Shown piece by piece: positions 4,222-4,369 of a DNA stretch of 64,000 bases. This DNA comes from Shigella phage JK55, in the sequence record MK962758, one strand, 5' to 3'. How positions within the stretch are numbered: position 1 is the stretch's first letter; every line of letters begins with the position of its first letter. The notes beneath the pieces were generated by a model, which ran no database searches, was not told the DNA's origin, and worked only from the letters and a program-made list of their open reading frames with translations. The position numbers and the translations under genes were made by a program.

Positions 4222-4369
4222 TAATTATCTTTGTAGATAAGTTATTAAGCTTACCTGTGAGTATGCGACCACAAAGGGTGAAAGGGTAAATTCTAGATTT
4301 AAACCCAAAAAGTCACATCGCTACAGACCTTAAGCAAGTCTGGGTAGCTTATCTACAAAGATAATTTAA
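4222..4369. repeat. 20-bp perfect inverted repeat (taattatctttgtagataag / cttatctacaaagataatta) flanking about 105 nt
   Basis: arms at 4222-4243 and 4348-4369 are exact reverse complements. Confidence 0.6.

Follow-up and report, generated by a model that had tools for sequence, protein, structure and literature searches.

The first block of the transfer RNA (tRNA) cluster of Shigella phage JK55 (sequence record MK962758) contains a long inverted repeat in the spacer immediately upstream of tRNA-Lys(UUU). We analyzed this repeat within a stretch of 64,000 nucleotides (nt), hereafter the window, and conclude from comparison across phage lineages that its two arms form the closing helix (P1) of a conserved, predicted pseudoknotted RNA fold on the tRNA strand. 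The whole small-RNA unit (4222–4370, + strand, ~145 nt) extends from the end of a preceding RNA module, element D, to the base preceding tRNA-Lys, and very probably constitutes a structured, co-transcribed RNA. As an overall explanation, we lean slightly toward the view that the unit is a small RNA excised from the tRNA precursor and belongs to a Y-RNA-like set of partners of a Ro60-fold protein encoded upstream.

Extent and Uniqueness of the Inverted Repeat

Exact complementarity extends over 19 base pairs (bp), with AATTATCTTTGTAGATAAG at 4223–4241 matched by its reverse complement at 4348–4366. An earlier note on this DNA had described a perfect 20-bp repeat; the repeat is present, but the twentieth pair is not, as T4222/T4367 is a mismatch, and the arms, which had been placed at 4222–4243 and 4348–4369 (22 nt each for a 20-nt string), are corrected here to the 19-bp spans. 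The insert, which had been put at about 105 nt, measures 106 nt between the 19-bp arms, and the location given in the same note is confirmed: the unit lies between element D (ending ...CGGTCTGGTAA at 4224) and tRNA-Lys(UUU) (4371–4446, + strand), the latter identified by both ARAGORN and Rfam. The helix can be extended inward to 22 bp (4223–4244 and 4345–4366) with a single non-Watson-Crick pair, T4242·G4347, which counts as a G·U wobble only if the sequence is read as + strand RNA.

Among perfect inverted repeats in the window with loops of at most 200 nt, none is as long as this 19-bp match, the runner-up being 13 bp, while the longest inverted repeat in each of 100 first-order Markov simulations of the window measured 11–15 bp. 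The length of the repeat is far beyond chance. The 19-mer occurs in the window at the two arms alone, even when up to three mismatches are allowed (0.06 matches expected). An 801-nt stretch around the repeat matches 294 phage records, the best at 98–99% identity, which places the window in a FelixO1-type myovirus (Felixounavirus, Ounavirinae). Because a 158-nt stretch recurs at at least 95% identity in 185 independent phage genome records, an assembly artefact at this locus, raised beforehand as a possibility, can be ruled out.

Architecture and Covariation of the Unit

Read as + strand RNA, the unit begins with the 5′ arm of P1 (4223–4244), in which the 19 perfect pairs of 4223–4241 are followed by U4242·G4347, U4243-A4346, and A4244-U4345, and it closes with the 3′ arm (4345–4366), which stops 4 nt short of the tRNA-Lys 5′ end. 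Directly 3′ of the 5′ arm lies the first strand of the predicted pseudoknot, GCUUA (4249–4253), whose partner, U4331–C4335, is located in the loop of the P3 hairpin CAGAC[CUUAAGCAA]GUCUG (4324–4342). P3 in turn is positioned directly 5′ of the P1 3′ arm, separated from it by the linker G4343–G4344. Between these elements, RNAalifold run on sequences of the window's type (form 1) proposes a tentative helix P2, formed by GCGA (4265–4268) and UCGC (4318–4321), which surrounds an interior hairpin, GGGUAAAUU-CUA-GAUUUAAACCC (4284–4306), with the palindrome UCUAGA at its tip. For the folding energy, which had been suggested as a check, the minimum free energy (MFE) of the unit is −48.2 kcal/mol (z = −4.2 versus shuffles), with similar energies on both strands. 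The unit matched no Rfam family at E<10 in scans of 5.6 kb, of 298 nt alone, and of three related loci.

All six lineages have a counterpart of the unit immediately 5′ of tRNA-Lys(UUU). The groups that carry it are Felixounavirus, Mooglevirus, Suspvirus, the Pectobacterium Arno18 type (phages Arno18, Arno162, and Wc4, with a homologous unit at the equivalent position), and three more distant Ounavirinae-like contigs (L082, L083, and L084, the last being Yersinia phage P778), which were reached via the neighboring Ro-like protein. Kolesnikvirus tRNA clusters do not contain it. A second allelic form (form 2) occurs in Mooglevirus, Suspvirus, and a minority of Felixounavirus. Within the genus Felixounavirus, for which L002, L003, and L004 were compared with the window, forms 1 and 2 have near-identical flanks, with switch points inside the P1 arms, a distribution that suggests cassette exchange through recombination within the P1 helix. 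Sequences of the different unit types are mostly unalignable with one another; the architecture is common to all.

P1 measures 15–26 bp in every lineage and 19–26 bp in most, its length being kept despite sequence drift. In every lineage P3 consists of a 5–6-bp stem of variable sequence (CAGAC, CAGACC, CAAACC, CAGUC, CCGUC, CCAUC, CUGUUC, or AAAGUC) and a 9-nt loop, C-Y-U-W-A-G-C-A-A. The pseudoknot pairs GCUUA with UAAGC in form 1, GCUAA with UUAGC in form 2 and L084, UUGCUUA with UAAGCAA in L082 and Arno18, and UUGCUU with AAGCAA in L083. Three of its pairs are invariant and one is switched from U-A to A-U (six versus three cores), the A-to-U change in the loop of form 2 and L084 being matched by a U-to-A change in the 5′ element. 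Bulged G residues in the core are conserved as well.

To count pairs we used a gapless core alignment of nine distinct cores, assembled from the P1, pseudoknot, and P3 segments, because full-length cross-lineage MAFFT alignments misplace P1, the pseudoknot, and the P3 loop. In this core alignment 93.2% of cells are paired, compared to 60.3% in shuffles, and 20 of the 26 pairs are altered on both sides; none of 500 shuffles reached the observed values. When partners were slid by one to three columns as a control, pairing fell to 28–39%. For P1, all 15 scored pairs are altered on both sides across lineages and 93% of cells are paired, a percentage that is inflated and partly built in, the register having been picked lineage by lineage, and that must be held against the fold to this extent. 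P3 was anchored on its loop and not fitted, and shows 100% of cells paired with compensatory changes in four of five pairs.

The interior of the unit displays changes of the same kind. The counterpart of P2 in L082, GCGG/CCGC, differs from GCGA/UCGC of the window by an A-U to G-C change. The hairpin tip AUUCUAGAUU is common to forms 1 and 2, A-to-G changes in the interior hairpin of L038 yield G·U pairs, and the helix below the UCUAGA hairpin of form 2 covaries (AUUUCCU/AGGAAAU, AUCUCUU/AAGAGAU, GUUUCUU/AAGAGAC). Palindromic tips recur with different sequences: UCUAGA in forms 1 and 2, AACGUU in Arno18 and L084, and ACUAGU in L082. A scan of IMG/VR with the pseudoknot and loop pattern (TTGCTTA N70-100 CTTAAGCAAG) returned 118 stretches, none of which combines a P3 stem of at least 5 bp with a long P1; they are therefore regarded as chance matches, and the scan doubles as a negative control. 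A second IMG/VR scan via the Ro-like protein returned mostly the same Felix-type contigs. Of the three interpretations offered in the earlier note, the stem of a stable structured RNA is the one supported, by compensatory changes in six lineages, the conserved hairpin and pseudoknot, and non-standard pairs that are mostly G·U on the tRNA strand.

Two resemblances to known RNAs were tried and rejected. P3 as a mimic of the tRNA-Lys anticodon arm rests on the likeness of CAGAC to the anticodon stem CAGA in the window, and this likeness fails in Arno18, L083, and L084. In the case of a hammerhead, form 2 (CCGAUGAG) has the invariant U replaced, and GAAA is not conserved.

Strand, Transcription, and Processing

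The tRNA cluster comprises 25 genes, all on the + strand, and the unit belongs to its first block. Non-standard pairs in the core alignment favor this strand (13 G·U versus 4 A·C cells), as do the paired cells overall (218/234 versus 209/234), and single P1 substitutions in close relatives produce G·U in three cases (L015, L020, fKMPT1) and C·A in one (L030). Two strong sigma-70-like promoters on the + strand lie upstream, TTGACA-17-TAATAT at 3124–3152 and TTGACA-18-TAAAGT at 3215–3244, and no + strand terminator-like site was found between the latter and the next promoter at 4620–4648. The wobble bias, the upstream promoters, and the orientation of the tRNA genes therefore point to a + strand transcript, and co-transcription with tRNA-Pro through tRNA-Ile is the natural reading that we infer from this layout.

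In the pathway that we propose, transcription starting from the promoters at 3124 and 3215 would cover both the unit and the first tRNA block. An RNase P cut at the 5′ end of tRNA-Lys (4371) would generate the 3′ end of the unit, while its 5′ end would come from a cut close to or at the element D boundary, or from RNase III acting inside the 22-bp duplex. P1 would then hold both ends together and so protect and stabilize the excised RNA. We consider it an even proposition that RNase P and/or RNase III release the unit as a stable RNA.

An intrinsic terminator was also considered for the repeat and rejected, given an AT-rich stem, a loop as large as 100 nt, and the sequence UAAUGGAAG, with no U tract, after the 3′ arm; no terminator-like site was called here on the + strand. 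A coding function was discarded as well, no open reading frame (ORF) of at least 34 amino acids overlapping the unit.

A Ro60-Fold Protein Gene and RNA Modules Upstream

An ORF of 471 amino acids (1690–3105, + strand; Pfam DUF2828 and DUF7788) ends 1.1 kb upstream of the unit on the same strand. Its AlphaFold (AF2) model, built from a 52-sequence alignment, has a predicted local distance difference test score (pLDDT) of 89.2 and a predicted template-modeling score (pTM) of 0.89. A Foldseek search of the PDB with this model returned Ro60/Rsr structures as all of its top 11 matches (E of 7e-9 to 2e-6, template-modeling scores of at most 0.66, full-length alignments), from Thermus phage phiLo, Xenopus, human Ro60, and Deinococcus Rsr. 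The model confidently predicts a Ro60 fold, with a HEAT ring plus a vWA domain, and the protein shares 34% identity over its whole length with a mycobacteriophage 'Ro-like RNA binding protein'. The DUF2828 branch to which it belongs occurs in many large phages and in eukaryotes. Homologues were observed in 709 phage records, from Listeria, Staphylococcus, Campylobacter, and Vibrio phages and mycobacteriophages, often adjoining tRNA clusters.

A preprint on another Felixounavirus, Bas63, describes gp130, whose gene immediately precedes the tRNA stretch of that phage, and reports this protein to be Ro60-like and to counteract the Ppl defence (10.1101/2024.10.10.617714). The authors of the preprint guess that 'some tRNA genes are possibly Y RNAs', with none named (10.1101/2024.10.10.617714). 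Judged by shared position and fold rather than by alignment, gp130 is the likely orthologue of the ORF at 1690–3105.

Among the first tRNAs, shortly before the unit and in the same orientation, there are four further RNA modules, elements A to D. They follow a common design, in which a 4-bp outer stem and an AGA bulge precede an AGACC(RR)/(YY)GGUCU stem, followed by UUACAGCAA, a variable middle, and a closing ...GGUCUGG. Element A (3437–3514) reads UGAC-AGA-AGACCAA-UUACAGCAA...UUGGUCU-G-GUCA, element B (3603–3672) reads UUAC-AGA-AGACCG-UUUACAGCAA...CGGUCU-G-GUAA, and element C (3998–4080) reads GAGU-AGA-AGACCAA-AUACAGCAA...UUGGUCU-G-GCUC; the outer stem covaries among the four elements, as can be read from these sequences. 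Element D (4088–4224), whose 3′ outer strand (GUAA, 4221–4224) overlaps the first bases of P1, carries in its middle a tRNA-like interior in YrlA order. This interior consists of a V arm (UUUCU/AGAAA), a T arm (4146–4162) that matches the Rfam tRNA model, a closed acceptor-like hairpin (4163–4180), and a D arm (4183–4197), and the MFE fold of element D yields exactly this cloverleaf. The acceptor-like hairpin covaries in Mooglevirus and Suspvirus (ACUCGGC/GUCGAGU, ACACG/CGUGU, ACCCUUC/GAAGGGU). The permuted order V-T-acceptor-D defines bacterial YrlA (PMC4201824), and on these grounds element D is predicted to be a YrlA-type permuted tRNA mimic.

Comparable modules accompany DUF2828 genes elsewhere. 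In Klebsiella phage FBKp34, the counterpart directly downstream of the DUF2828 gene (L085 7707-7814) matches the Rfam YrlA model with 39.6 bits (E = 2.5e-7, local search) and is framed by AGAAGCU-UUACAGCAA...AGCUUCU, in the same way as element D. FBKp34 and mycobacteriophage Krypton555 (38.3 bits) both have YrlA-model matches just downstream of DUF2828 genes, at E of 2e-5 and 5e-5. Modules consisting of a stem plus [U/A]UACAGCAA stand beside DUF2828 genes in the window, L082, L083, L084, FBKp34, KVP40, and Krypton555, and those with a stem plus UUACAGCAA adjoin DUF2828 genes in six unrelated phage groups. Such modules were not found in the tRNA regions of Arno18 and Kolesnikvirus, which are without a DUF2828 gene. 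As a separate observation, the place of element D directly upstream of the unit is occupied in Arno18 (L011 3569-3685) by a tRNA-like RNA in normal order, with an acceptor stem GCCTGT/ACAGGC, a T arm CTGTGGTTCGACTCCGCAG, a long insert, and no CCA.

The Unit as a Candidate Partner RNA

In the overall explanation toward which we lean, the other partner RNAs of the set would be the modules A to D. The part of it that concerns the unit's own function is weaker: partnership with the Ro60-like protein is the single role that we favor most for the unit, and we regard it as doubtful. A Y RNA is expected within ~4 kb of a Ro60 gene on the same strand, and the distance here is 1.1 kb; it is further expected to measure ~80–130 nt with a long end stem, and in the unit the 22-bp P1 encloses 100 nt, the whole (~145 nt) being slightly long. 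The known Y RNAs (YrlA and YrlB, PMC4201824; Yrl1 and Yrl2 of Thermus phage phiLo, PMC12135203) resemble the unit in lying at most ~1 kb from a Ro60-fold gene on the same strand and in combining a length of ~100–150 nt with a long stem, formed by pairing of the two ends, that encloses a large structured interior. They resemble the locus as a whole in that several different partner RNAs stand side by side, one of them (element D in the window) a tRNA mimic of the order V-T-acceptor-D. Furthermore, the Felix-type P3, ACAGACC-UUAAGCAA-GUCUGG, repeats the stem, motif, and 3′ GG of the modules (AGAAGACC-GUUUACAGCAA...GGUCUGG), and P3 looks like a minimal module without cargo. The unit and the Ro-like gene are both present in Felixounavirus, Mooglevirus, Suspvirus, L082, L083, and L084, and both absent from Kolesnikvirus (stretches L012-L014, with no Erwinia among the organisms that have a Ro-like match). 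Approximately 252 records contain the unit region and ~249 a close Ro-like gene in Felixounavirus, Mooglevirus, and Suspvirus.

Several findings weigh against this explanation. The near-perfect co-occurrence within these three genera could be explained by shared ancestry alone. Arno18 has P1, the pseudoknot, and P3 without a Ro-like gene, as judged by whole-genome tblastn and by Pfam on its ten largest unassigned ORFs, and it is without the UUACAGCAA modules too; conversely, FBKp34 has a Ro-like gene and modules without the unit. The Rfam YrlA model matched neither the unit nor element D at E<10, and the canonical Ro-binding motifs (GGUCCGA, GNCGAAN0-1G, CGAA) are not found in the unit of the window. 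P1 has no bulge. If the P3 loop is a protein-binding motif, the pseudoknot would mask it. A search of the literature found no usable transcript data on FelixO1-type phages, nor expression or processing data for the unit. The interior of form 2 does contain GCCGAUG, or GCCGAAG in one variant, outside the stem and not conserved in form 1, and the T, D, and acceptor-like arms are located in element D, not in the unit. Compared to Y RNAs, the unit differs in having no Ro motif in a bulged stem, no YrlA-model match, and no Ro60-read bulge in P1, as well as in being pseudoknotted and placed inside a tRNA operon, with Arno18 keeping the RNA without the protein; the protein of the window likewise differs from those of Y RNA systems in belonging to the DUF2828 branch and not to Pfam TROVE.

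A different likeness leads to a variant of this explanation. Class I RNAs of Dictyostelium (RF01414) have a layout of a 6-bp stem plus CCUUACAGCAA ... CUGU, are reported to be unique to Dictyostelia, and are bound by a protein with an RNA-recognition motif (PMC7919456). Elements A to D, and P3 less exactly, share with them a short terminal stem whose 5′ strand is directly followed by (C)UUACAGCAA and whose 3′ strand ends in UCUG, with a variable middle in between. The Class I model matches element B weakly (3611–3668, 22.8 bits, the match of the window) and FBKp34 twice (25.2 and 23.6 bits), all below the 41.5-bit gathering threshold. Elements A to D carry the full UUACAGCAA and score below threshold; P3, CAGAC-CUUAAGCAA-GUCUG, is one base short of the 11-nt CCUUACAGCAA and has no Rfam match. 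Unlike in Class I RNAs, the P3 loop has one C fewer than the motif and is engaged in pseudoknot pairing. It could be imagined that modules A to D, with P3 as a minimal copy, are specific ligands of the DUF2828 branch of Ro60 proteins, with Dictyostelium Class I RNAs as the eukaryotic counterpart in the same kind of ribonucleoprotein and the unit as a gated member, in which the pseudoknot would hide the protein-binding loop for as long as P1 stays uncut and folded. We consider this variant quite improbable. If true, it would mean that the phage could tune a Ro60-like particle that counters host defence, as the likely orthologue gp130 of Bas63 counters Ppl.

Alternative Explanations

The unit might be merely an RNase III processing stalk that splits the polycistronic tRNA precursor, with the enclosed RNA as a by-product. 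RNase III stalks, such as the stems flanking 16S and 23S rRNA and the R sites of phage T7, release RNAs from polycistronic precursors, and like P1 they can present about two turns of uninterrupted duplex flanking the RNA to be released. P1 lies between tRNA genes within one transcription unit, reaches at least 15 bp everywhere and 19–26 bp in most lineages with its length kept while its sequence drifts, and provides the ~20 bp of uninterrupted double-stranded RNA that RNase III calls for (19 perfect bp plus three, including one G·U); Arno18, moreover, keeps the unit without a Ro-like gene. A stalk requires no interior, however, yet the P3 loop is nearly invariant and the pseudoknot and interior helices covary; the remaining tRNA spacers of the cluster do without one, and Kolesnikvirus clusters have no such stalk at all. 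The small enclosed RNA with conserved tertiary pairing is also unlike RNase III stalks, those of T7 being short hairpins with internal loops. We judge this explanation unlikely. The same low probability attaches to a functional RNA that is independent of the Ro60-like protein. Such an RNA could, for example, act on a host defence nuclease as a decoy or inhibitor, exert regulation linked to tRNA-Lys, cleave itself as a small ribozyme, or form dimers by means of its palindromic loop. The tRNA cluster of phage T4 encodes stable RNAs (species 1 and 2, rnaC/rnaD), which are not tRNAs, are co-transcribed and released by tRNA-processing enzymes, and have no known function; to our knowledge, no Ro60-like gene adjoins that cluster. 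As a non-tRNA RNA placed among phage tRNA genes, with co-transcription and release by tRNA processing proposed for it, the unit would resemble the T4 species. The constant place directly upstream of tRNA-Lys(UUU), the presence of the unit in Arno18 without the Ro-like gene, the pseudoknotted core, whose 9-nt loop hardly varies and whose bulged G residues are conserved, and the palindromic tips of the interior hairpins all speak for a Ro-independent role, although no ribozyme or other Rfam family was matched and adjacency to tRNA-Lys may be mere inherited synteny.

Explanations at the level of DNA fare far worse. A miniature inverted-repeat transposable element (MITE) or other mobile insertion, which the earlier note had listed as an option, would account for 19-bp terminal inverted repeats around ~100 bp of non-coding DNA and for the occurrence in Felixounavirus of either of two allelic interiors (form 1 or form 2) with flanks that are nearly identical. 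It is contradicted by a single copy per genome at a constant locus, always between element D and tRNA-Lys (197 places in 194 records), with no other copy in the window and none in 5,426 complete E. coli genomes, by flanks (GGTCTGGT and TAATGG) that form no target-site duplication, and by arms that change by compensation, which is not expected of transposase ends. The comparison of relatives for presence or absence, proposed as a check for mobility, turned up no empty site: the region is present from end to end in 245 of 252 related records, the rest being larger deletions or partial records. We regard a mobile insertion as exceedingly improbable, and hardly less so a DNA element such as a cruciform, recombination hotspot, replication or packaging signal, or palindromic protein-binding site. 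Cruciform extrusion is conceivable for a perfect 19-bp palindromic pair, fold energies differ little between the strands, and the switch between forms 1 and 2 takes place inside the arms. Against this, the pairing is conserved while the arm sequence is not, mismatches are biased toward G·U on one strand, a 100-nt spacer disfavors extrusion, and the interior has covarying RNA helices and a pseudoknot of its own. The recombination or cruciform site that had been put forward as a further option leaves the covarying interior and the strand asymmetry unexplained.

Other Features of the tRNA Region

Two further stretches downstream of the unit merit description. At 4620–4851, the stretch after a near-consensus promoter, TTGACA-17-TATAGT, has weak Rfam matches to transfer-messenger RNA (tmRNA) and permuted tmRNA. 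This stretch contains the frame GCA AAC GAC AAU GUU UUU CUG GCA GUA GCU UGA, which encodes a tmRNA-tag-like peptide, ANDNVFLAVA*. ARAGORN calls no tmRNA here, and a homologous stretch is present in Kolesnikvirus (L012, ~4430–4600). At 5060–5147 there is an uncalled tRNA-like gene with an acceptor stem TGGGACG/CGTCCCA, a T arm GGGGTTCAACTCCTCC, and a 3′ end TGCCA. Its anticodon stem, AACGG/CCGTT, closes an oversized 9-nt loop, CCTCCAAAA, and its only model match is a 23-bit match to tRNA-Sec; Arno18 has a counterpart (L011, ~4400–4490).

The tRNA block is mosaic among relatives. FelixO1 (L001) has an extra ~60 nt between tRNA-Asn and tRNA-Tyr (990–1058) and an HNH-like ORF between tRNA-Met and tRNA-Ile (1810–2316), and pSJ21 (L003 1-181) has an HNH homing endonuclease upstream of tRNA-Asp. 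This mosaicism explains why our first similarity search returned matches in multiple pieces.

Discussion

The features that distinguish the unit are a perfect two-turn closing duplex and a pseudoknot that joins a loop to the 5′ side. The Ro60-like gene at this position in Felixounavirus is already in the literature; for the RNA, we found no database family or paper. Spacers in phage tRNA clusters are usually annotated as junk, and one of them here holds a conserved, predicted pseudoknotted RNA that has no database description. The modules also raise the possibility that a phage RNA motif is connected with an enigmatic class of eukaryotic RNAs. The locus provides concrete candidates, with coordinates, for the RNA partners of a phage Ro60 protein, namely a YrlA-like tRNA mimic, three Class I-like modules, and a long-stem RNA, and the question of which RNA a phage Ro60 protein binds thereby becomes directly testable.

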